This document shows, piece by piece, positions 16,274 through 49,252 of a stretch of 64,000 nucleotides of DNA (position 1 is the stretch's first letter; every line of letters begins with the position of its first letter). A model generated the notes under the pieces. It was not told where the DNA came from, did not search any database, and saw only the letters and a list, made by a program, of their open reading frames with translations. The translations under genes were made by a program, and so were the position numbers. Origin of the DNA: Puniceicoccales bacterium Verruco_01 (GTDB taxonomy: Bacteria > Verrucomicrobiota > Verrucomicrobiia > Opitutales > Oceanipulchritudinaceae); NCBI GenBank assembly GCA_001604565.1, contig LVBV01000015.1, positions 10,719 to 74,718 of the forward strand, read 5' to 3'.

Positions 16274-16576
16274 TCAGAAACTGCGGTTCTTGAGGACTTC
16301 GGAGGGCGGCGGAATCTCGTCCGGGCCGCAGCCGATGGCGAGGATCAGCTTGAGGGCCGTCGTGATGAGAATGTTGGTCTGCCCCGCTTCGATGCGCTGG
16401 ATCGTGCGGATGTTGAGGCCGGTGCTCTCCGCGAGCTGCTCCTGCGTGATCCCGCGCTTGGTGCGTGCCTTGCGGAAGCTGGAGCCCAGATGTTCCAGAA
16501 GCATGGCGATCGACTTTTCGTCGTAGGGCCCGTGCGAGACCGTTTCGGCGGCGGGTTCTTTCTTACGGCGCGACAT
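16274..16576 (-). CDS. XRE-family helix-turn-helix transcriptional regulator
   Basis: 'FRKARTKRGITQEQLAESTGLNIRTIQRIEAGQTN' is a canonical HTH_3 segment. 100 aa. Confidence 0.8.
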   Translation of the reverse strand: MSRRKKEPAAETVSHGPYDEKSIAMLLEHLGSSFRKARTKRGITQEQLAESTGLNIRTIQRIEAGQTNILITTALKLILAIGCGPDEIPPPSEVLKNRSF

Positions 16577-16763: not shown

Positions 16764-17615
16764 TTAGCGGACGAGCGCCGGATTGTGAGCGGCCTCGTAG
16801 GCGACACTCGTGGTGGGACCGTGTCCCGGCAGGATGACGGTGTCTTGTGGGAGGGTGAGAATTTGGGAGCGGAGGGCGTCGATCGCCTCCCTCCACTGGC
16901 CGTCCGCCCGCCCCACCGATCCGGCGAAGAGCGCGTCCCCGGTGAAGACGACCGGACGGGAAAGCCCCGTCAGAAAATAGCTCATGCCGCCCGGTGTGTG
17001 GCCCGGCGTGGCGATGGCGCGGATTGCTAGCGGGCCGATTTCTACGATTTCTCCGTCGAGGATCGGCCTCATGCACTCGGCGAGTTTTTCGCACTCCGCG
17101 CAACGGACGGTGGCCTCCGGGAAGAGGGAATGCACCGTGGGCAGTCCCGCCACGTGGTCGGGGTGAGTGTGTGTGACGAAGATTGCGCGGATCGTGAGGT
17201 TTTGCGCCTCGATCGCCGAGGCGACCGGCTCTGCGACGCTGCCGCCGTCCACGAGAATCGCGCCCGAGTCGCCCGGGATCCGCACAAGGTAGGCGTTCAC
17301 GGTGCCGTCCAAGGCGCCGGGTGTGGGATGAGGCGTGACGATCGTGACAATCTCCGGAAGGTGTGCTGCCGGGGGCGCGTATTCGCCGCACTGGAGCGCC
17401 ACCAGTTCCGGCACGCCCAAACCCAGTACCCGCGCCACGCCGCGCGCCACCTCCACATCCTTCGCGCCGCGCTCGGCCTCGCGCATGCTGGGCACCGAAA
17501 TTCCCGCTCTGGCGCACAGCGTGCATCGGTCCATTCGCTGACCCCAGCGCGCTTTTTCGACAAGATCCATCCAGTTGTCTTCCAGTCGAGGCGGGGGTGG
17601 GGTGGTTTCGCTCAT
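16764..17615 (-). CDS. XRE-like HTH domain fused to a metallo-beta-lactamase-fold hydrolase (glyoxalase II-like)
   Basis: Only the last 283 aa of ORF 16764..18803 look real. Start is 'MSETTPP'. The N-terminus 'RMDRCTLCARAGISVPSMREAERG' is HTH-like. Then 'VTHTHPDHVAG' (HxHxDH), 'TPGHTPGG', 'GDALF' and 'LPGHG'. Confidence 0.8.
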   Translation of the reverse strand: MSETTPPPPRLEDNWMDLVEKARWGQRMDRCTLCARAGISVPSMREAERGAKDVEVARGVARVLGLGVPELVALQCGEYAPPAAHLPEIVTIVTPHPTPGALDGTVNAYLVRIPGDSGAILVDGGSVAEPVASAIEAQNLTIRAIFVTHTHPDHVAGLPTVHSLFPEATVRCAECEKLAECMRPILDGEIVEIGPLAIRAIATPGHTPGGMSYFLTGLSRPVVFTGDALFAGSVGRADGQWREAIDALRSQILTLPQDTVILPGHGPTTSVAYEAAHNPALVR

Positions 17616-17626
17616 GGTTGTGTTAC

Positions 17627-17651
17627 GATATTCGCTTTGCCGGGGATATTC
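17627..17651. promoter_or_regulatory. direct repeat GATATTC-N11-GATATTC in the 114-bp divergent control region
   Basis: 'gatattc' occurs at 17627-17633 and 17645-17651, between the MBL-fusion start (17615) and the polB-like start (17730). The function is inferred only. Confidence 0.2.
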
Positions 17652-17729
17652 CAGCGAAAGACCGGTTTCTTTGAGGGGTCCCTCCTGCATTTTCTCGCAC
17701 GGGGGACTTCCCGGGGCTAGGGTGAGTGC

Positions 17730-19811
17730 GTGATCTGCGGACTTTTCATCGCCGACGACGGTGGTGTTCACCTTTGCCGGGCTCTGGCCGACGGTTCCCG
17801 CGCCGTGGAGGTGGCGGGGACGTTCCGCCCCTGGCTCTGGGCGGCGGGCGAGCCGCTTGCCTCCGGCATGGAGGCCGTGCCCCTCTCGGGCGCGGGACGG
17901 CTCAACCGGCTTCTTTTCTTCGATTCGGTGGACTCCTTCCGCAAGGCGTTGGCGGACCGGACGCTGGAAAGCGAGGCCCTCCGTCCCGTGGAGGCGCAGT
18001 ACTTGGTGGAAAACCGCCTGCGCTTTTTTGACGGGATGAGCTTTGGCGAGCTGCGACGCATGACCCTTGCGATCGAGGTCGATTCCGGCGCGGAGGATCC
18101 CGACGCAATGAACACGGCGCACCGGATCCTCGCGATCGGTCTCGTCCTGCCGGACGGGACGGAGAAGATTCTTCACCCGGCGGAAGGCTCCTCCGGCGAA
18201 CGGGAAATGCTGGCCCGATTTGGTGAACTCTTGCACGCGGCAGACCCCGATGTCGTGGAAGGCCACGGAGTGGGGGACTTTGCCCTGGATTTCCTCGTCC
18301 GCCGTGCAAAACGCCTGCGCCTTCCGGCCCTGTGGGGACGCTTCGGTCAGGCAGCGAGCGTCCGCAAGAGCCGTATGCGCATCGCGGAGCGGTGGTTGGA
18401 CTTCAACCGCGCGGACCTGCCGGGGCGCACGGTCTTCGACAGCTTTCCGGCGGCGCAGGTGTTTGACATCACCGCGCGGGAGATGCCCGGCTACGAGCTG
18501 GAGAACGTGGCCGAATTCTTCGGCTGCGCCGCGCCGGAAGGGACGGAGGGCCTTGCGCGGAGCCTCGCTTTGCAACGGAACGTCTGCGGGATCCTGCTCC
18601 CCACCTATTTCGCGCAGGCGCAGAACATCCCGCTGCCGCCGCAGGAGGTGTGCCTGCGGGGGACTTCCGGCAAGGTGGACGCCCTGCTCTTCGAGCGGTA
18701 CTTCGCCGCGCGTCACGCGTTGCCGGACTATCCCGCCGGAAGCGCCTTCGAGGGCGCGTTTTCCAGGAGCTTCGAGACCGGCGTGTTCCACTCTGTCCTG
18801 CACTACGACGTGGCCTCGCTCTATCCGTCGCTGCTATTGGCCATGAACCGCAATCCGGCGGGCGACGAACTGGGCGTGTTCCTGCCGCTTCTCAAGGAGC
18901 TGCGGGATCTGCGCCTACAATACAAGAAAATGGCGCGCGAGGCTTCGAGCGAGGAACTCAAGAGCCGCTACGGATCGCGCCAGCAGAGCTTCAAGATCCT
19001 CATCAACTCCTTCTACGGCTACCTCGGCTTCCCGCAGGCGCGCTTCGCCGACCCCGCCCTTGCCGCCGAGGTGACGCGTCAGGGACGCGAACTCATCCAG
19101 AAACTCGTGGAGGCCTTCATTGCGGCGGGCTGCCGGGTGCTGGAGGCCGATACGGACGGCATCTATGTGGCGGGCGGGGAATTCGCCGCCGATCCGGAGG
19201 CGCTCCTCGCAAAGGTGACCCACGTTTTGCCGGAGGGCGTCTCCCTCGAATTCGACGGGGCGTATGAGTCCATGTTCTGCTACAAGGCGAAGAACTACGC
19301 GCTTCTTAAGGACGGCAAGGTCCACATCGCCGGGAGCGCCCTGCGCTCGCGCGGGATCGAGCCCTTCCTCGGCGCACTGACCGAGGCTCTCCTTGCGTGG
19401 CTTCTCGGCAAAAGCCCTGTCCATCCCTCGGAGAGGGTTGCCAAGGCGCGCGCGCAAATCGAATCCGGCGCCATGCCGGTCGCGATGCTGGCCAAAAGCG
19501 AGTATCTTTCCATGAGCCCGGAGGCGTACCGAAAAAAGATGGAAGAGGGCGGCAAACCGCGCCGCGCCTCGTTGGAGGTGGCCCTCCGCATGAGCCCGGC
19601 CCCGCGCATGGGTTCGCGCGTTTGCTATTACCTGGCCCCGAAAGAGAAGGGGATGACCTCCGACTGGCAGCGGGCGAAGGCGCTTGCCGAATTCGACCCG
19701 CAGAACGCCCCCTATGACGCGAAAACGTATCTCTCGCGCCTCGATGACTGGGAGGAGCGCTTCGGGCTCTTTTACGGCAAGGGCGATGCGCAGGGGGAAC
19801 TCTCGCTGTGA
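17730..19811 (+). CDS. family-B DNA polymerase (Pol II-like) with degenerate exonuclease motifs
   Basis: Motif A 'YDVASLYPS', motif B 'KILINSFYG', motif C 'ADTDGIYV', KxY 'KAKNYAL'. N-terminal lobe is colinear with E. coli Pol II but reads 'LAIEVD' for 'SIDIET' and 'GDFALDFL' for 'VQFDLRML'. GTG start. Confidence 0.9.
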   Translation: MICGLFIADDGGVHLCRALADGSRAVEVAGTFRPWLWAAGEPLASGMEAVPLSGAGRLNRLLFFDSVDSFRKALADRTLESEALRPVEAQYLVENRLRFFDGMSFGELRRMTLAIEVDSGAEDPDAMNTAHRILAIGLVLPDGTEKILHPAEGSSGEREMLARFGELLHAADPDVVEGHGVGDFALDFLVRRAKRLRLPALWGRFGQAASVRKSRMRIAERWLDFNRADLPGRTVFDSFPAAQVFDITAREMPGYELENVAEFFGCAAPEGTEGLARSLALQRNVCGILLPTYFAQAQNIPLPPQEVCLRGTSGKVDALLFERYFAARHALPDYPAGSAFEGAFSRSFETGVFHSVLHYDVASLYPSLLLAMNRNPAGDELGVFLPLLKELRDLRLQYKKMAREASSEELKSRYGSRQQSFKILINSFYGYLGFPQARFADPALAAEVTRQGRELIQKLVEAFIAAGCRVLEADTDGIYVAGGEFAADPEALLAKVTHVLPEGVSLEFDGAYESMFCYKAKNYALLKDGKVHIAGSALRSRGIEPFLGALTEALLAWLLGKSPVHPSERVAKARAQIESGAMPVAMLAKSEYLSMSPEAYRKKMEEGGKPRRASLEVALRMSPAPRMGSRVCYYLAPKEKGMTSDWQRAKALAEFDPQNAPYDAKTYLSRLDDWEERFGLFYGKGDAQGELSL

Positions 19812-20296
19812 AAACCAGAGCCTTTTCGCTCGTGGAGGTGATCGCGGCGCTTTCGATTCTCGCGGTGCTCGGCGTCGCGGCGGGGACTCTTGCCTCCAGC
19901 CGCGAGGGCGCAAGGGAGCGGACCGCAGCCCTTGCCGGAGCCCCGGCGGCGATGGAGGCGCTCTCTTCGGCTTTGCAGGGCGAGAACCCCGCCGCCTTTG
20001 CCGCGCGGATTGCGGCGGAGGGCCGGGCCTTCCTCTGGCGCGACGCGGGGCGCGAGGGGGCGCCCTGGTGCATGGCTTTTGCGGCGGAGCTGCCGGATGC
20101 GGTCGATCCGTACGGGCCGCTGTTTGTTGCGGAAATTTCCAATCCCCGCCTGCGCGCGGACGGACGGGCGGCGGAGTTCTCCGTTGCCCTCGGCTGGCTC
20201 GCTCCCGTGCCTGCGGAAACCCGCGCCGCGCTTCTTGCCCGAGCGTCCGGCGCGGCACAGCTTTGCCGCTATCCGGCTATCATCGTCAGCCCATGA
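19808..20296 (+). CDS. prepilin-type N-terminal domain protein (pseudopilin-like), 162 aa
   Basis: 'MKTRAFSLVEVIAALSILAVLGV' is a class-III signal with Glu at +5 (Ala at -1). The GTG start overlaps the polymerase stop (GTGA). Confidence 0.7.
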   Translation: MKTRAFSLVEVIAALSILAVLGVAAGTLASSREGARERTAALAGAPAAMEALSSALQGENPAAFAARIAAEGRAFLWRDAGREGAPWCMAFAAELPDAVDPYGPLFVAEISNPRLRADGRAAEFSVALGWLAPVPAETRAALLARASGAAQLCRYPAIIVSP

Positions 20297-20919
20297 AAAC
20301 GCGCGGCCTCACGCTGGTGGAACTCATGGCGGCGCTGGCCCTCACGGCGGTCGTCGTGGGCATCGCGGGGGCGCTCCTGTTCCGGAGCCTCGACCTCGTG
20401 GAACGGGAGGCGGACTCTTCCGCCGCCGCGCGCGATGCCGATCTGGCCCTCGACGATCTGGCCGCGGACCTCGCCGCGCAGAGGGACGCCCGGGAACTGC
20501 CCGCGCCGGTCGCTGCCTTTGCGCTCACCAAGGAGAACCGCGTCCTCGCCCTCTCTATCGCAGCCCCGGACGGAACTCGCGCCGTGGCGTGGTTTTTCGC
20601 CGGAGAAGGCCCCTTCGATCTTATCCGAGTGGAGGTGGATTCTTCCGCGACCAGCGCCGCCCTGCCGGGAAACGCCGCTAACGCCGCCGCCCGCGCGATC
20701 CTTGCGGGCACCGCCACAGTGGGGGAGTCCGGCGCGATTCTGGAATGCCCGCGCGTCACGCGGCTCCATCTGGACGCGGCCCACCCAAAGGAAATCCCGC
20801 AGATCGCGATGGAAAGCCTTTCCGCCGAGGGCGCGCGTCGTCTTGCGGAGGGAGGGACCCTGTCTGCCCTTCCAGCGCGCTGCGTCCAATCTTCGGCAAG
20901 GCCGGTTCCGGTCCGCTGA
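20293..20919 (+). CDS. prepilin-type N-terminal domain protein (pseudopilin-like), 208 aa
   Basis: Internal Met of ORF 19684..20919: 'MKTRGLTLVELMAALALTAVVVG' (G|L-T-L-V-E). ATGA overlap with the preceding gene. Confidence 0.7.
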   Translation: MKTRGLTLVELMAALALTAVVVGIAGALLFRSLDLVEREADSSAAARDADLALDDLAADLAAQRDARELPAPVAAFALTKENRVLALSIAAPDGTRAVAWFFAGEGPFDLIRVEVDSSATSAALPGNAANAAARAILAGTATVGESGAILECPRVTRLHLDAAHPKEIPQIAMESLSAEGARRLAEGGTLSALPARCVQSSARPVPVR

Positions 20920-26510: not shown

Positions 26511-27592
26511 CGCGAATGGTGGAAGCCAACATCCAGCGCATAAAGAGTGCGGAGACGAGGTAGCGGCTCAAGCATATGGGTTTACCACAACTCAAAAATG
26601 TTGAGAGCGAAGCTACCGCTGCCTCCGCGAACAGGAGCGTCACACAATCTACCGGATGGGTAAAGCGCAATACAGTCAAAGTGAGATCGCCGAGGCGCTG
26701 GGGTACAGCCAGTCGACGATCAGCCGGGAAGTGAACCGCAACCGCGGCGCTCGGGGGTATCGCCCGAAGCAGGCCGAGGAAAAGGCCCAGAAACGGCTGG
26801 AGGAAAAGAGCACCGGGACGAGTCAACGAGGGGCGATGGTCACTGAGGTGCGCGAACGCTTGATACGTATGCACAGCCCCGAGCAGGTGAGCGGCGCGCT
26901 GCGGCCTGAAGCAGGGAAAGACACGTCGCGCACGAGCATTTACAACTACATCCGCGCGGACAAGGAAGCGGGCGGCGAGCTGCACAAGAACCTACGCATC
27001 AACGGAAAGCGGCGTTACCCGCATCGTAACAAGACAAGCCGCCGCAAGCTGCCCGCGCGAGTGGATATCAGCGAGCGCCCCGAGATCGTGAACCAGCGCA
27101 CGCGCTACGGAGACGGGGAGGCGGACCTGATCCAGGGGAGCCGCGGTATCTGCTGAGCCTCTACGAACGCAGGAGCCGCGTGAGCCTGCTGGCGAGGCTG
27201 GAGAGCAAGGATTCGGTCGCGACCGCCGACGCGATCATCAAGGCGCTGCGGGGGCGGAAGGGGCACGCGGTCACCTACGACAACGGGCTGGAGTTCGCGG
27301 ATCACGAGCGGGTGAATGCGGCGCTGGGCTCGAAGAGCTCCTTCTGCAAGCCGTATCACTCGTGGGAGAAGGGCTGCGTGGAGAACTGCAACGGCCTGTT
27401 GCGCCAATCCTTTCCCAAGGGCGCGGACTTTCTCCACATGGACGAGGCTAGCCTCGTCCATGTCCAGAGGGAGCTCAACGAGCGCCCTCGAAAGACACTC
27501 AACTACAACTCACAAGCCAACCTGCAACACAGACTCATGGCCTGAGCATCACCCAACCCGAAGAATTTTTGCATTAAGTGTTGGAATCCGCG
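26511..27592 (+). mobile_element. IS30-family insertion sequence, decayed (approximate ends)
   Basis: Contains the IS30 transposase remnants. Tentative imperfect terminal inverted repeats are 'cgcgaatggtggaagccaacat...' (from 26511) versus the reverse complement of '...gtgttggaatccgcg' (to 27592). The ~1.08 kb size fits IS30. Confidence 0.5.
26605..27545 (+). pseudogene. IS30-family DDE transposase, frameshifted
   Basis: HTH 'LREQERHTIYRMGKAQYSQSEIAEALGYSQSTISREVNRN' has no in-frame start upstream of Met 26656. 'YGDGEADLIQG' runs into a stop at 27154-27156. The protein continues in another frame as 'YLLSLYERRSRVSLLARL...TYDNGLEF...HSWEKGCVENCNGLLRQ'. Confidence 0.8.
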
Positions 27593-32787: not shown

Positions 32788-33981
32788 TTATCCGACGGCG
32801 CTGGCCATGTTGAAGATCGGCAAGAACATCGCGATCACGATGCCGCCGACGACGACGCCCAGCACCACGATGATGATCGGCTGCATGAGGCTCGTCAGGG
32901 CATCGACAGTGGTGTTCACCTCGTTGTCGAAGAAGTCCGCCGCCTTGTCCATCATGCCGTCCACGTTGCCGGTGGATTCGCCCGCGCGGGCCATGTGCTT
33001 CACCGTGGGCGGGAAGTAGGGGAGCATCGCGATGGTGTCCGAAAGCTGGCCGCCCTGGGACACGTCGCGCGACATGTCGCGCACGCCCGCCTCCACGAAG
33101 GTGTTGCCGCTCGCCTTCGAGACGATTTCCAGAGCCCGCAGGATCGGCACGCCGCTGCGCAGCAAGATCGCGTAGGTGCGGCAGAAGCGAGCCATCGCCA
33201 CCTTGCGGATGAGCGGGCCCACGATCGGCACCTTCGCAAGGAATTTGTCCTTGGCGATCCTCCCGCGCGGGGTGGCCACGAAGCGCCGGAGAATCCACGC
33301 AAGGATGACGAAGGCGACGATGATGTACAAAATGTTGCTCTGCAAAAGTTTGCTCGCGCCGATTACCCACTGCGTGAACTTCGGCAGCTCCTTGTCGAAG
33401 TCGGAATACATCTCGGCGAACTTGGGGATCACGAAGATGAGGAGCACGTTGATGAGGACGATCGCAAGGGTGATGACCGCGATCGGGTAGGCCATGGCTC
33501 CCTTCACCTTCTTGCCGAGGCGCACCGAGTTTTCGAAATACGTGGCCACCTTGCCCATGAGTCCGGCGAGGCTGCCGGAAGCCTCGCCTGCCTCCACCAT
33601 CGAGACGAAGAGGCTGGGGAAGGCCCTCGGATACTTGGCAACGGCCTCGGAGAACGAGGTGCCCGCCGCCACGTCGTTGCGCACGTCGCGAATGATGATG
33701 CGGAAAACGGGGTTCTCGGTCTGTTCCTCGATGGCGGCCAGCGCCGAGACCAGAGGAAGACCCGAGTCCAGCATCGAGGCGAGCTGCTGCGTGAAGGTGC
33801 AGACCGCCGCCAGCTTGATCTTCGCTGTTTTGGAGCGCTTCTCGTTGGCGCGTTGCTTGGCCAGCTTCTGGCCTTCCCAGAAACCGACGCTCGCTCCGCC
33901 CTTCGCGGCGGAGGGCTTTGCCTTCGTCGCGCGCTGGGGAACGTTCTGGTTGAGGAAGGGCATCTCTTTCCGGGAATGCAA
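32788..33981 (-). CDS. type II secretion / type IV pilus platform protein (GspF/PilC family)
   Basis: Two GspF repeats ('FTQQLASMLDSGLPLVSAL...' and 'FCRTYAILLRSGVPILRAL...'). The start may instead be Met at 33963 ('MPFLNQ'). Confidence 0.85.
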   Translation of the reverse strand: MHSRKEMPFLNQNVPQRATKAKPSAAKGGASVGFWEGQKLAKQRANEKRSKTAKIKLAAVCTFTQQLASMLDSGLPLVSALAAIEEQTENPVFRIIIRDVRNDVAAGTSFSEAVAKYPRAFPSLFVSMVEAGEASGSLAGLMGKVATYFENSVRLGKKVKGAMAYPIAVITLAIVLINVLLIFVIPKFAEMYSDFDKELPKFTQWVIGASKLLQSNILYIIVAFVILAWILRRFVATPRGRIAKDKFLAKVPIVGPLIRKVAMARFCRTYAILLRSGVPILRALEIVSKASGNTFVEAGVRDMSRDVSQGGQLSDTIAMLPYFPPTVKHMARAGESTGNVDGMMDKAADFFDNEVNTTVDALTSLMQPIIIVVLGVVVGGIVIAMFLPIFNMASAVG

Positions 33982-48373: not shown

Positions 48374-49252
48374 CTACGCCTCCTTCGCAGCCTTGGGGGC
48401 CGATTCGTCCGTTTTCCCCGCCGCTTCGGCAAGGCGTGCCTTCGCCACAGCCACATACTCGGCGTCGATGTCGTAGCCCGTGAAGCTGCGGACGCCTTCA
48501 AAGTAGGCCGCGAGGGCGGAGGAGCCGATGCCGAGGAAGGGGTCCATCACGCGCGTTTGGGCGTTTGCCCCGGCGATCTTCAGGCAGTTGCGCGCGAGCT
48601 CCACCGGGAAGGTGGCGGGATGGGGGCGGTCCGTCGAGCGGCGCTGGATCGTCTCGTAGGGGACGAACCAGACGTTCCCCCGGCAGCGTTTGTCCCGCCC
48701 GCCCGTGTGCCCCCAGCGCGCGATGTTGCTTTTATCCTGATAGGGCACACCGAGTGCGAGGCGTTCCAGCGGCACGTTGCCGGTCTTGGTCAGGTGGAAG
48801 ACGTATTCGTGGCAGTCGTTCACAAACCGCTTCGAGTTGATCGGCTTGAAGTGGCCGACCGAGACGAAGTCGCCGTCTTCTCCCTTCGGGTCCGGCACGC
48901 TGATCGACTTCACCCAGTGGAACGTGTTCTGTAGCTTCCACCCGCACTCGCAGGCAAGGAGCGCCATCTGGTGCGGGAACAAGGGTTCCTTCGGCGAGGC
49001 GCCCACATTGAGGAAGAACGAGCCGCCATCGGAAAGCACCCGCAGGATTTCCGTCATCCACACCCGGCACCACGTCAGATACTCCGCGCGGGAAGAAGTG
49101 TCGTCATAAGTTAAATAGTGAATTCCAAGGTTATAAGGAGGTGAAGTGACGACAATGTCTTTGCTCCCGCCGGGCATCCGACGCATGCCTGAAACGCAGT
49201 CACAGCATTCTAGCCAAAAACGAAGATCTTCATCGCGTTTTGTTTCGCCCAT
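48374..49252 (-). CDS. beta-class site-specific DNA methyltransferase (N4-cytosine or N6-adenine)
   Basis: Motif IV 'VVTSPPYN' lies near the N-terminus and motif I 'VMDPFLGIGSS' near the C-terminus (circularly permuted beta order). 'HPATFPVELA' is also present. The 5' ~170 nt use AT-ending codons. Confidence 0.9.
   Translation of the reverse strand: MGETKRDEDLRFWLECCDCVSGMRRMPGGSKDIVVTSPPYNLGIHYLTYDDTSSRAEYLTWCRVWMTEILRVLSDGGSFFLNVGASPKEPLFPHQMALLACECGWKLQNTFHWVKSISVPDPKGEDGDFVSVGHFKPINSKRFVNDCHEYVFHLTKTGNVPLERLALGVPYQDKSNIARWGHTGGRDKRCRGNVWFVPYETIQRRSTDRPHPATFPVELARNCLKIAGANAQTRVMDPFLGIGSSALAAYFEGVRSFTGYDIDAEYVAVAKARLAEAAGKTDESAPKAAKEA

Follow-up and report, generated by a model that had tools for sequence, protein, structure and literature searches.

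Among the family-B DNA polymerases (PolBs) of bacteria, G3 is the second-largest group and has no experimentally characterised member. The latest survey treats G3 as a proofreading, clamp-binding enzyme of high accuracy and reports a clamp motif in it (Timinskas et al. 2026, PMC12926913). A glutamate in motif C is a synapomorphy that G3 shares with PolEpsilonN and B10, and the sole non-bacterial members of the group are the PolBs of Salinibacter and Nostoc phages (Kazlauskas et al. 2020, PMC7544198). The subject here is a gene for a G3-like PolB from the Puniceicoccales bacterium Verruco_01 (Verrucomicrobiota), in which the exonuclease site is degenerate and which is followed, in overlapping reading frames, by two genes for pilin-like proteins, ORF2 and ORF3. 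The trio lies in a stretch of 64,000 nucleotides from contig LVBV01000015.1, called the window below, to which all coordinates refer unless a locus is named.

A three-gene arrangement of a similar kind is the iRadA-PPB2-PolB2 operon of group G2 (PMC11791011). PolB2 is likewise exonuclease-dead, with ExoI not conserved and ExoIII missing, and its operon likewise contains genes for two small proteins; a clamp motif is found in some members, and a translesion role has been proposed. However, PolB2 belongs to a B1-3-like clade, whereas the window PolB is EpsilonN-like, and PolB2 usually lacks the first Asp of motif C, whereas the window protein has an intact DTD with the G3-type Glu. The partners of PolB2 are cytoplasmic (an inactive RadA and the helical PPB2) and in bacteria are encoded upstream, whereas those in the window are prepilin-type, predicted to be exported and encoded downstream. 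In place of iRadA and PPB2, the window PolB has genes for an MBL-fold and a helix-turn-helix (HTH) protein upstream on the opposite strand and for N_methyl proteins downstream. Finally, lexA is enriched near polB2, whereas no LexA-like box is found at the window operon. In view of the different partners, motif C and clade, a PolB2-type mutasome was rejected, and the resemblance between the two polymerases is convergent.

Two other polymerases offer partial parallels. E. coli DNA polymerase II (G1) is also an accessory, clamp-binding, chromosomal family-B polymerase, but it is exonuclease-proficient, SOS-regulated, carries a ‘GWN’ ExoII signature and falls in another clade. Exo-minus Pol I orthologues (PolA1; PMC12926913) are housekeeping or repair polymerases in which a DnaQ-like domain is structurally intact but catalytically dead, a loss that is also recurrent and lineage-specific. 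They differ in belonging to family A, in having a 5'-3' FEN domain and in lacking linkage to pilin genes. An earlier note on this DNA, made before any database search, knew of no described system that pairs a proofreading-dead PolB with two pilin-like proteins, and none was found in the literature, the known exo-dead PolB2 operon having iRadA and PPB2 (PMC11791011).

The polymerase and its exonuclease site

The three genes are all present where the earlier note had placed them:

17730..19811, + strand: PolB, assigned to the G3 (Pol-epsilon-N-like) group, predicted exonuclease-dead, 693 amino acids, GTG start (Pfam)
19808..20296, + strand: ORF2, lineage-specific prepilin-type protein, 162 amino acids, GTG start (N_methyl)
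20293..20919, + strand: ORF3, lineage-specific prepilin-type protein, 208 amino acids, ATG start (N_methyl)

The two junctions that had been noted can be read directly from the sequence. The stop codon of PolB overlaps the GTG of ORF2 in GTGA at 19808-19811 (context ...CTG TGA), and that of ORF2 overlaps the ATG of ORF3 in ATGA at 20293-20296 (context ...CCC ATG A..).

Profile searches, which the earlier note had proposed, match PolB to DNA_pol_B (PF00136; 1.8e-24, 86.8 bits) and DNA_pol_B_exo1 (PF03104; 1.3e-8, 35.0 bits), both above the gathering score (cut-off 23). There are more than 2800 homologues, and wherever a source is named it belongs to Opitutales, Puniceicoccaceae or Verrucomicrobiota. 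Among the species-representative genomes scanned, at least 584 encode a relative, with housekeeping genes of varied kinds around it, and an orthologue is near-universal in the sampled Opitutales. PolB is thus a core chromosomal gene of this order that is vertically inherited, not a sporadic element.

A likeness to E. coli Pol II, on which the earlier note had built its alignment, is not borne out. The protein scores 1.7e-13 against E. coli Pol II versus 1.5e-28 against archaeal B3, and a tblastn search of 50,697 phage records (E<=1e-10) returned only Salinibacter (5e-77) and Nostoc/Anabaena/Dolichospermum phages. Since motif C contains the clade Glu and the phage matches are confined to Salinibacter and Nostoc-type phages, PolB is probably a member of the bacterial G3 (EpsilonN-like) group. 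It shares with that group the architecture of an N-terminal, a DnaQ-like and a polymerase domain, the motif C ‘E-x-DTDG’, the C-terminal beta-clamp motif and a chromosomal, bacterial location (PMC7544198; PMC12926913). It differs in that G3 was described with conserved 3'-5' exonuclease active sites, whereas here ExoI reads AxE, ExoII reads GxxxFA and ExoIII is deleted. An association with pilin genes is also unreported for G3. The motifs are as follows:

18801..18830, + strand: polymerase motif A ‘HYDVASLYPS’; D360, S363, L364, Y365, P366 and S367 invariant, including in phage G3 PolB
18993..19019, + strand: polymerase motif B ‘KILINSFYG’; K422 to G430 invariant
19140..19169, + strand: polymerase motif C ‘LEADTDGIYV’; E472, A473, D474, T475, D476 and G477 invariant
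19284..19304, + strand: KxY motif ‘KAKNYAL’; K519, K521, N522, Y523 and A524 invariant
18063..18083, + strand: ExoI remnant ‘TLAIEVD’; Asp replaced by Ala114 (nt 18069), Glu116 kept
18261..18296, + strand: ExoII remnant ‘GHGVGDFALDFL’; Asn replaced by Gly180, Asp by Ala185 (nt 18282)
18525..18584, + strand: site of the ExoIII (Y-x3-D) deletion, where ‘EGLARSLALQRN’ is left; alignment gap opposite ‘...RERFLAYLGDDLRET’
19791..19808, + strand: C-terminal ‘QGELSL’, putative beta-clamp-binding motif (from the C-termini of orthologues)

All the residue and nucleotide positions that the earlier note gave for these motifs are exact. The family-B signatures that it had read, A (DxxSLYPS), B (KxxxNSxYG), C (DTD) and KxY, are all present in PolB and are invariant in alignments with orthologues and the phage G3 PolB.

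The lost exonuclease residues were examined in the same alignments, together with PolB from P. abyssi. In ExoI, the window has ‘LAIEV’ where exonuclease-proficient orthologues and the Salinibacter phage PolB have ‘LDIET’ or ‘QLDIET’. In ExoII, ‘GHGVGDFALDFL’ stands opposite ‘GHNIFKFDLDYL’, the pattern in proficient orthologues and the phage being ‘GHNIFxFDLxYL’. ExoIII, which the earlier note could not place, is ‘YxxDD’ or ‘Y-L-x-D-D-LRET’ in proficient relatives and a gap in the window PolB, from which about 24 residues are absent relative to the phage G3 PolB. The phage protein serves as an outgroup (30% identical) and has all three exonuclease motifs intact in the same columns. Independently, HMMER pairs the window Ala185 with an Ala in the ExoII motif of a P. 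abyssi PolB chain (4flt), which we take to be the D215A exo-minus mutant, so that the column would be that of the ExoII Asp. Because the phage and 4flt alignments place the motifs in the same columns, the loss is real and not an artefact of alignment: both substitutions claimed by the earlier note, Asp to Ala at 114 and 185, stand, and a proper alignment restores none of the carboxylates.

Compared with a relative of 90% identity, PolB has a dN/dS of 0.14. Pairwise identity in the exonuclease domain is 0.55 within the exo-dead clade versus 0.66 among proficient relatives, whereas that in the polymerase domain is 0.72 in both, and the lower value fits a relaxed constraint on a domain kept for its structure. 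A Q-x-E/D-L/M-(x)-F/L sequence is found at the extreme C-terminus of nearly all of 80 orthologues, so that ‘QGELSL’ is a candidate beta-clamp-type motif. The sequence evidence supports a catalytically intact family-B enzyme, of predicted activity, that lacks the exonuclease carboxylates.

The window protein is not alone in this. A motif table and alignment were made of PolB and its 120 best matches (121 sequences), and a neighbour-joining tree was built. The ExoI ‘DIE’ is present in 97 of the 121, along with an intact ExoII ‘GHNIFxFDLDYL’ and ExoIII ‘Y-L-x-D-D-LRET’, so that its loss is a derived state within the family; about 20% of these closest members are degenerate in the exonuclease site. 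The window belongs to a clade A of 16 taxa (with P0001-P0009, P0011, P0013, P0014 and P0016-P0018), the sister of which, clade B, has four (P0010, P0012, P0015 and P0019) and reads ‘KIE’ at ExoI. P0024 is the next branch after these two, and the ExoIII deletion is common to the window, P0001-P0019 and P0024. Outside this group, degenerate motifs occur in P0022, P0023/P0032 and P0038. The residue at the position of the ExoI Asp varies among the exo-degenerate relatives (A, K, G, S or E), yet a full-length PolB frame is kept in 20 diverged clusters. From the motif states, proofreading has apparently been lost several times in the Puniceicoccaceae/Opitutales branch of G3. The C-terminal clamp motif is also missing from P0023 and P0032 (Puniceicoccaceae 5H and JB022), and in P0023 (locus L089) PolB lies among genes for two-component sensors.

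The two pilin-like proteins

ORF2 and ORF3 both match the N_methyl profile PF07963 above its cut-off of 21.2 (ORF2, 22.5 bits, 7.8e-5; ORF3, 24.1 bits, 2.4e-5), and both also match NCBIfam TIGR02532 above cut-off. N_methyl is the only Pfam match in 16 of 17 members of the ORF2 family and 10 of 11 of the ORF3 family. Two features stand out in the alignments:

19808..19882, + strand: ORF2 class-III signal ‘MKTRAFSLVEVIAALSILAVLGVAA’, with Ala at -1 and Glu at +5 (read directly; motif conserved in family alignments)
20656..20679, + strand: ORF3 conserved motif ‘AALPGNAA’, the core L-P-x-N-A-A of which is invariant in family alignments

The Glu at +5 (E10) is invariant in the ORF2 family and present in at least 90% of the ORF3 family. 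At -1, ORF3 has Gly (‘TRG|LTLVE’), and ORF2 of the window lineage has Ala (‘TRA|FSLVE’). Orthologues of ORF2 have Gly at this position (‘MRPG|FTLIE’, ‘NAG|FTLVE’), in the canonical form G|FTL[IV]E, and ‘RRG|HTLVE’ is a further orthologous site. In AlphaFold2 models, ORF2 (pLDDT 87) consists of a helix at residues 8-56 and five strands, and ORF3 (pLDDT 86) of a helix at residues 8-61 and beta-sheets. The models thus predict a pilin topology for both, with an N-terminal helix of about 50 residues and a beta-sheet. The class-III signals that the earlier note had seen on both proteins hold up in the profile matches, the orthologous sites and the pilin-like models. Its further suggestion, that these N-termini might be mere membrane anchors, is unlikely, since the full class-III motif is conserved, including Glu+5.

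The closest described relatives in type are the minor pilins and pseudopilins of type IV pili (T4P) and of type II secretion systems (T2SS; GspI/GspJ). These share with ORF2 and ORF3 a short basic leader, a [GA]|[FLH][ST]L[IV]E sequence with Glu+5 and a long N-terminal helix (about 50 residues) that packs against a beta-sheet; their genes also form adjacent, overlapping pairs. In contrast, the globular domains of ORF2 and ORF3 have no significant sequence or fold match (NCBIfam GspI/GspJ at E ~0.03, far below cut-off), the genes are outside any T2SS/T4P cluster and the families are confined to about 13 representative clusters. The T2SS equivalogs were not matched: ORF2 scores 14.4 bits with XpsI (cut-off 150) and 14.1 bits with GspJ (cut-off 64.85), and ORF3 none. 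A Foldseek search of the models against the PDB gave no match at E<=0.001 for either protein. The best match of ORF3 was a chain of the XcpGHIJK pseudopilus (T2SS), which at E 0.36 and probability 0.63 is not significant. Rows for PCNA-like proteins and UL42 were disregarded (TM ~0.15-0.2, probability <=0.04). Paralogy of ORF2 and ORF3 was rejected, as hhalign aligns only their N-terminal helices.

Among 5.8e9 proteins, the ORF2 family comprises 16 clusters and the ORF3 family 11. A HMMER profile scan of 1.84e9 representatives found about 13 full-length relatives of ORF3, further matches being to the generic N-terminal helix; the most divergent relative, P0157, is on a contig of 1.1 kb. In the comparison with the 90%-identical relative, dN/dS is 0.19 for ORF2 and 0.23 for ORF3. 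By these values, both are real genes under purifying selection that evolve faster than PolB, and not the unconserved or artefactual frames that the earlier note had allowed for. Five residues of ORF3 (L124, P125, N127, A128 and A129) are invariant in two family alignments. Each protein has a single conserved cysteine, ORF2 C153 (~nt 20264, nearly invariant) and ORF3 C152 (~nt 20746, invariant), and an intermolecular disulfide between them in a heterodimer can be proposed speculatively.

Prepilin-type N-termini are scarce in background DNA: in the 64-kb window, only ORF2 and ORF3 have one, and about one convincing example was found in approximately 1 Mb around other Opitutales PolB loci. Two such genes side by side are therefore not a chance occurrence. 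An orphan T2SSF/PilC-type platform gene (32788-33981, - strand; 6.4e-64) is found 12 kb from the operon, between genes for a phosphotransacetylase and an Nramp-like transporter and without other secretion or pilus genes beside it. Its presence indicates that the genome contains type IV filament machinery.

Extent of the linkage and the surroundings of the locus

A PolB gene followed on the same strand by members of the ORF2 and ORF3 families was found in all eight clade-A contexts recovered, namely the window, L001 (90% identity), L082/L083 (75%), L084 (64%), L085 (62%), L086 (59%), L091 (59%) and the P0016 record (58%). The downstream genes encode 162-176 (ORF2 family) and 192-236 amino acids (ORF3 family), and the spacing from PolB to ORF2 ranges from an overlap of 8 nt to a gap of 58 nt. 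The flanks of the trio are of five kinds. Between the window group and the L086/P0016 group, the only common flank is an orthologous XRE-type regulator upstream, 60% identical (L086:3104-3367), which is not found in L084, L085 or L091 and may be an ancestral neighbour or regulator.

Outside clade A, the linkage is not seen. At 80 other Opitutales PolB loci (45-58% identity), there was no prepilin-type frame within 3 kb downstream, and tblastn with ORF2, ORF3 and their neighbours in the window matched nothing. In clade B, PolB is followed by a convergent gene (L002). The pilin pair of the same metagenome-assembled genome is on another contig (L087), with an Fe-S assembly gene on one side and a GSDH gene on the other, and L088 has one more pair without linkage to PolB. 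The exo-dead P0023 and P0024 have other PolB neighbours, and the pair is not adjacent. The adjacency that the earlier note proposed to look for in relatives is thus found in all clade-A contexts recovered and fails at the 80 other loci, in clade B, in P0023 and in P0024; it is not a property of this PolB across genomes of the PVC group.

Because exo-dead clade B, P0023 and P0024 have no linked pair, the loss of the exonuclease and the linkage to pilin genes are separable, independent events. By this distribution, the exonuclease loss is the older of the two, and it also occurs without the linkage. The pair itself is a self-standing unit of two genes, confined to a narrow lineage, which in clade A was joined to the transcription unit of PolB and has been retained.

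Other small genes also adjoin PolB. In exo-dead P0024, PolB overlaps at its stop codon with the next gene (L090:7097-7771), which encodes a 224-residue protein with an N-terminal transmembrane helix, without prepilin motif or Pfam match. In exo-proficient Opitutaceae (L003-L080), two small same-strand genes precede PolB (e.g., L027:5591-5974 and L066:4914-5381). One encodes a SirB/DUF1516-like membrane protein of about 112 residues and ends about 29 nt before PolB (63 loci), and the other a DUF2017-like protein of about 155 residues (49 loci); neither is present in the window, clade A or clade B loci. With SirB/DUF1516-like genes in Opitutaceae and the pilin pair in clade A, the PolB family adjoins genes for small envelope proteins in more than one lineage.

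Upstream of PolB, the candidate control region is

17616..17729, no strand: presumed promoter region, the intergenic stretch from which the MBL-fold gene (-) and PolB (+) diverge (read from sequence)

No match to a sigma-70-like promoter was found in this region, and it has no k-mer in common with the upstream regions of other clade-A loci. When the 200 nt upstream of PolB were compared, no regulatory 7-mer was common to at least four of six context groups. A direct repeat, ‘GATATTC’-N16-‘GATATTC’, is present at 17640-17675; L001 keeps it in full and L082 in part. It may serve as an operator, although its retention at the L001/L082 divergence is uninformative. The window was also searched for TGTTC-N4-TGTTC and TGTTC-N4-GAACA, which presumably are the LexA motifs of Verrucomicrobia. 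Both occur at chance level, with none near the operon, and LexA/SOS control of the trio was rejected.

The MBL-fold gene (16764-17615, - strand), divergent from PolB, encodes a hydroxyacylglutathione-hydrolase-like protein with about 100 extra N-terminal residues, the orthologues of which have a faint match to the Anti-Pycsar protein Apyc1 in precomputed annotation. The XRE-type HTH regulator (16274-16576, - strand) is also upstream of and divergent from PolB. On the downstream side, the stop codon of a convergent gene for a tail-specific protease lies 8 nt past the end of ORF3. Terminator-like matches inside the operon genes are weak. Long antisense or out-of-frame reading frames overlap the real genes at 16764-18803 (-), 18915-20258 (-) and 19684-20919 (+), with 679, 447 and 411 codons for amino acids; they are artefacts of the 65% GC content, without homology support. 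Elsewhere in the window, an HTH_38 frame followed by a second short frame without Pfam match (26656-27545, + strand) looks like a frameshifted remnant of an IS30-family transposase. A stand-alone N6/N4 DNA methyltransferase (48374-49252, - strand; PF01555, 2.9e-37) lacks an evident restriction partner in the frames that were checked.

Function and significance of the trio

The reading that we favour, at somewhat better than even chances, is that PolB works as a primer-dependent polymerase without proofreading, tethered to the clamp, which fills gaps, takes part in repair or extends DNA in lesion bypass, and that it is transcribed with an exported minor-pilin pair that acts in the envelope. Its DnaQ-like exonuclease domain would be catalytically dead and kept as a structural domain only. 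A Pol I-like housekeeping role is plausible, because PolB is ubiquitous in Opitutales and Verrucomicrobia often lack Pol I, a significant fraction having only a stand-alone FEN (PMC12926913); PolB might thus substitute for Pol I in such organisms. In clade A, ORF2 and ORF3 would be translationally coupled to PolB, the three genes being expressed from one transcript. The two small proteins would then be processed at their predicted class-III signals, leaving the globular domains outside the cytoplasm, where the two probably pair up as minor pilins or pseudopilins in a type IV filament or a T2SS-like machine. Their connection with PolB would be one of common transcription, through either co-regulation or operon hitch-hiking. 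A physical complex is not expected, because in a prepilin topology no more than a leader of about four residues remains on the cytoplasmic side.

Several points weigh against this reading. The persistence of the trio through five types of flank is a classic mark of functional coupling in an operon, and an incidental link should break more often. The Ala at -1 in ORF2 of the window lineage is suboptimal for prepilin peptidase. Beyond the N-terminal helix, ORF2 and ORF3 are unlike any solved pilin by Foldseek, and no pilus or T2SS genes adjoin them. A genuine functional unit of PolB with the two orphan pilin-like proteins, either a module for synthesis coupled to DNA uptake or a membrane-associated mutasome of three components that arose in convergence with PolB2-PPB2-iRadA, is unlikely, but its probability is not negligible.

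As a module of natural transformation, the trio would provide minor pilins for an uptake filament together with a co-induced PolB that fills gaps or copies the incoming single-stranded DNA. Competence regulons in general do combine pilins with cytoplasmic DNA-processing enzymes, and the presence of the trio at eight of eight clade-A loci despite rearranged flanks, its translational coupling, the prepilin-type motifs on both small proteins and the filament machinery indicated by the T2SSF gene would all agree with such a role. However, no comEA, comEC, dprA, pilQ or pilT gene was found near any trio or pair locus examined, the pair is unlinked from PolB in sister clade B, and no earlier example of a module of this kind with a polymerase was found in the literature. 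This role is considered a doubtful one.

More improbable is that ORF2 and ORF3 are accessory subunits or inner-membrane tethers of an exo-dead PolB, in a three-component mutasome like PolB2-PPB2-iRadA or UmuD'2C. In number and architecture, the genes resemble the operon in which exo-dead PolB2 has two small partners (PMC11791011), the stop/start overlaps suggest stoichiometric co-expression, and genes for small membrane proteins abut PolB elsewhere, both upstream (SirB/DUF1516-like, 63 loci) and downstream (L090). On the other hand, their globular domains are predicted to be periplasmic, with only the short leaders in the cytoplasm, and the conserved class-III motif with its Glu+5 points to filament assembly. 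The pair also persists away from PolB in exo-dead clade B, and neither protein has similarity to PPB2, iRadA or UmuD.

It is very improbable that PolB is a decaying, non-functional relic and its association meaningless: the exonuclease site is degenerate and variable among relatives, but the polymerase catalytic and clamp motifs are invariant across the exo-dead clade, and neither the low dN/dS of PolB nor the full-length frames in 20 diverged clusters would be expected of a relic. The remnant of a mobile element or of an anti-phage defence system with its own polymerase, which the earlier note had entertained, is scarcely credible and already largely refuted: PolBs do occur in casposons, pipolins and some defence loci, and the XRE-type HTH gene, the MBL-fold gene with its faint Apyc1-like match and the IS30-like fragment 6 kb away might recall these, but PADLOC has no match for ORF2 or ORF3 and matches PolB only to a generic intein-polymerase model, the locus has no flanking repeats, tRNA, GC anomaly, integrase, primase or terminal-protein genes, the clamp-binding motif is typical of cellular polymerases, and orthologous PolBs have housekeeping neighbours in their many host species.

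The locus shows that proofreading has gone, apparently on several occasions, from a branch of G3 in Verrucomicrobia whose polymerase and clamp motifs have stayed under purifying selection. This provides natural exo-plus/exo-minus pairs with which to ask whether the role of G3 is that of a Pol I-like gap filler or of a translesion extender. What is new is an exo-dead sub-branch of the uncharacterised G3 group with an unexplained, lineage-restricted operonic link to two orphan pilin-like genes. If the link is only transcriptional hitch-hiking, it counsels caution in inferring function from conserved adjacency in a narrow lineage. If the link is functional, it would tie the maintenance of the genome to the biology of type IV filaments, and if the trio is a true functional unit, PolB would be the first DNA polymerase functionally wired to proteins of the type IV pilin family.

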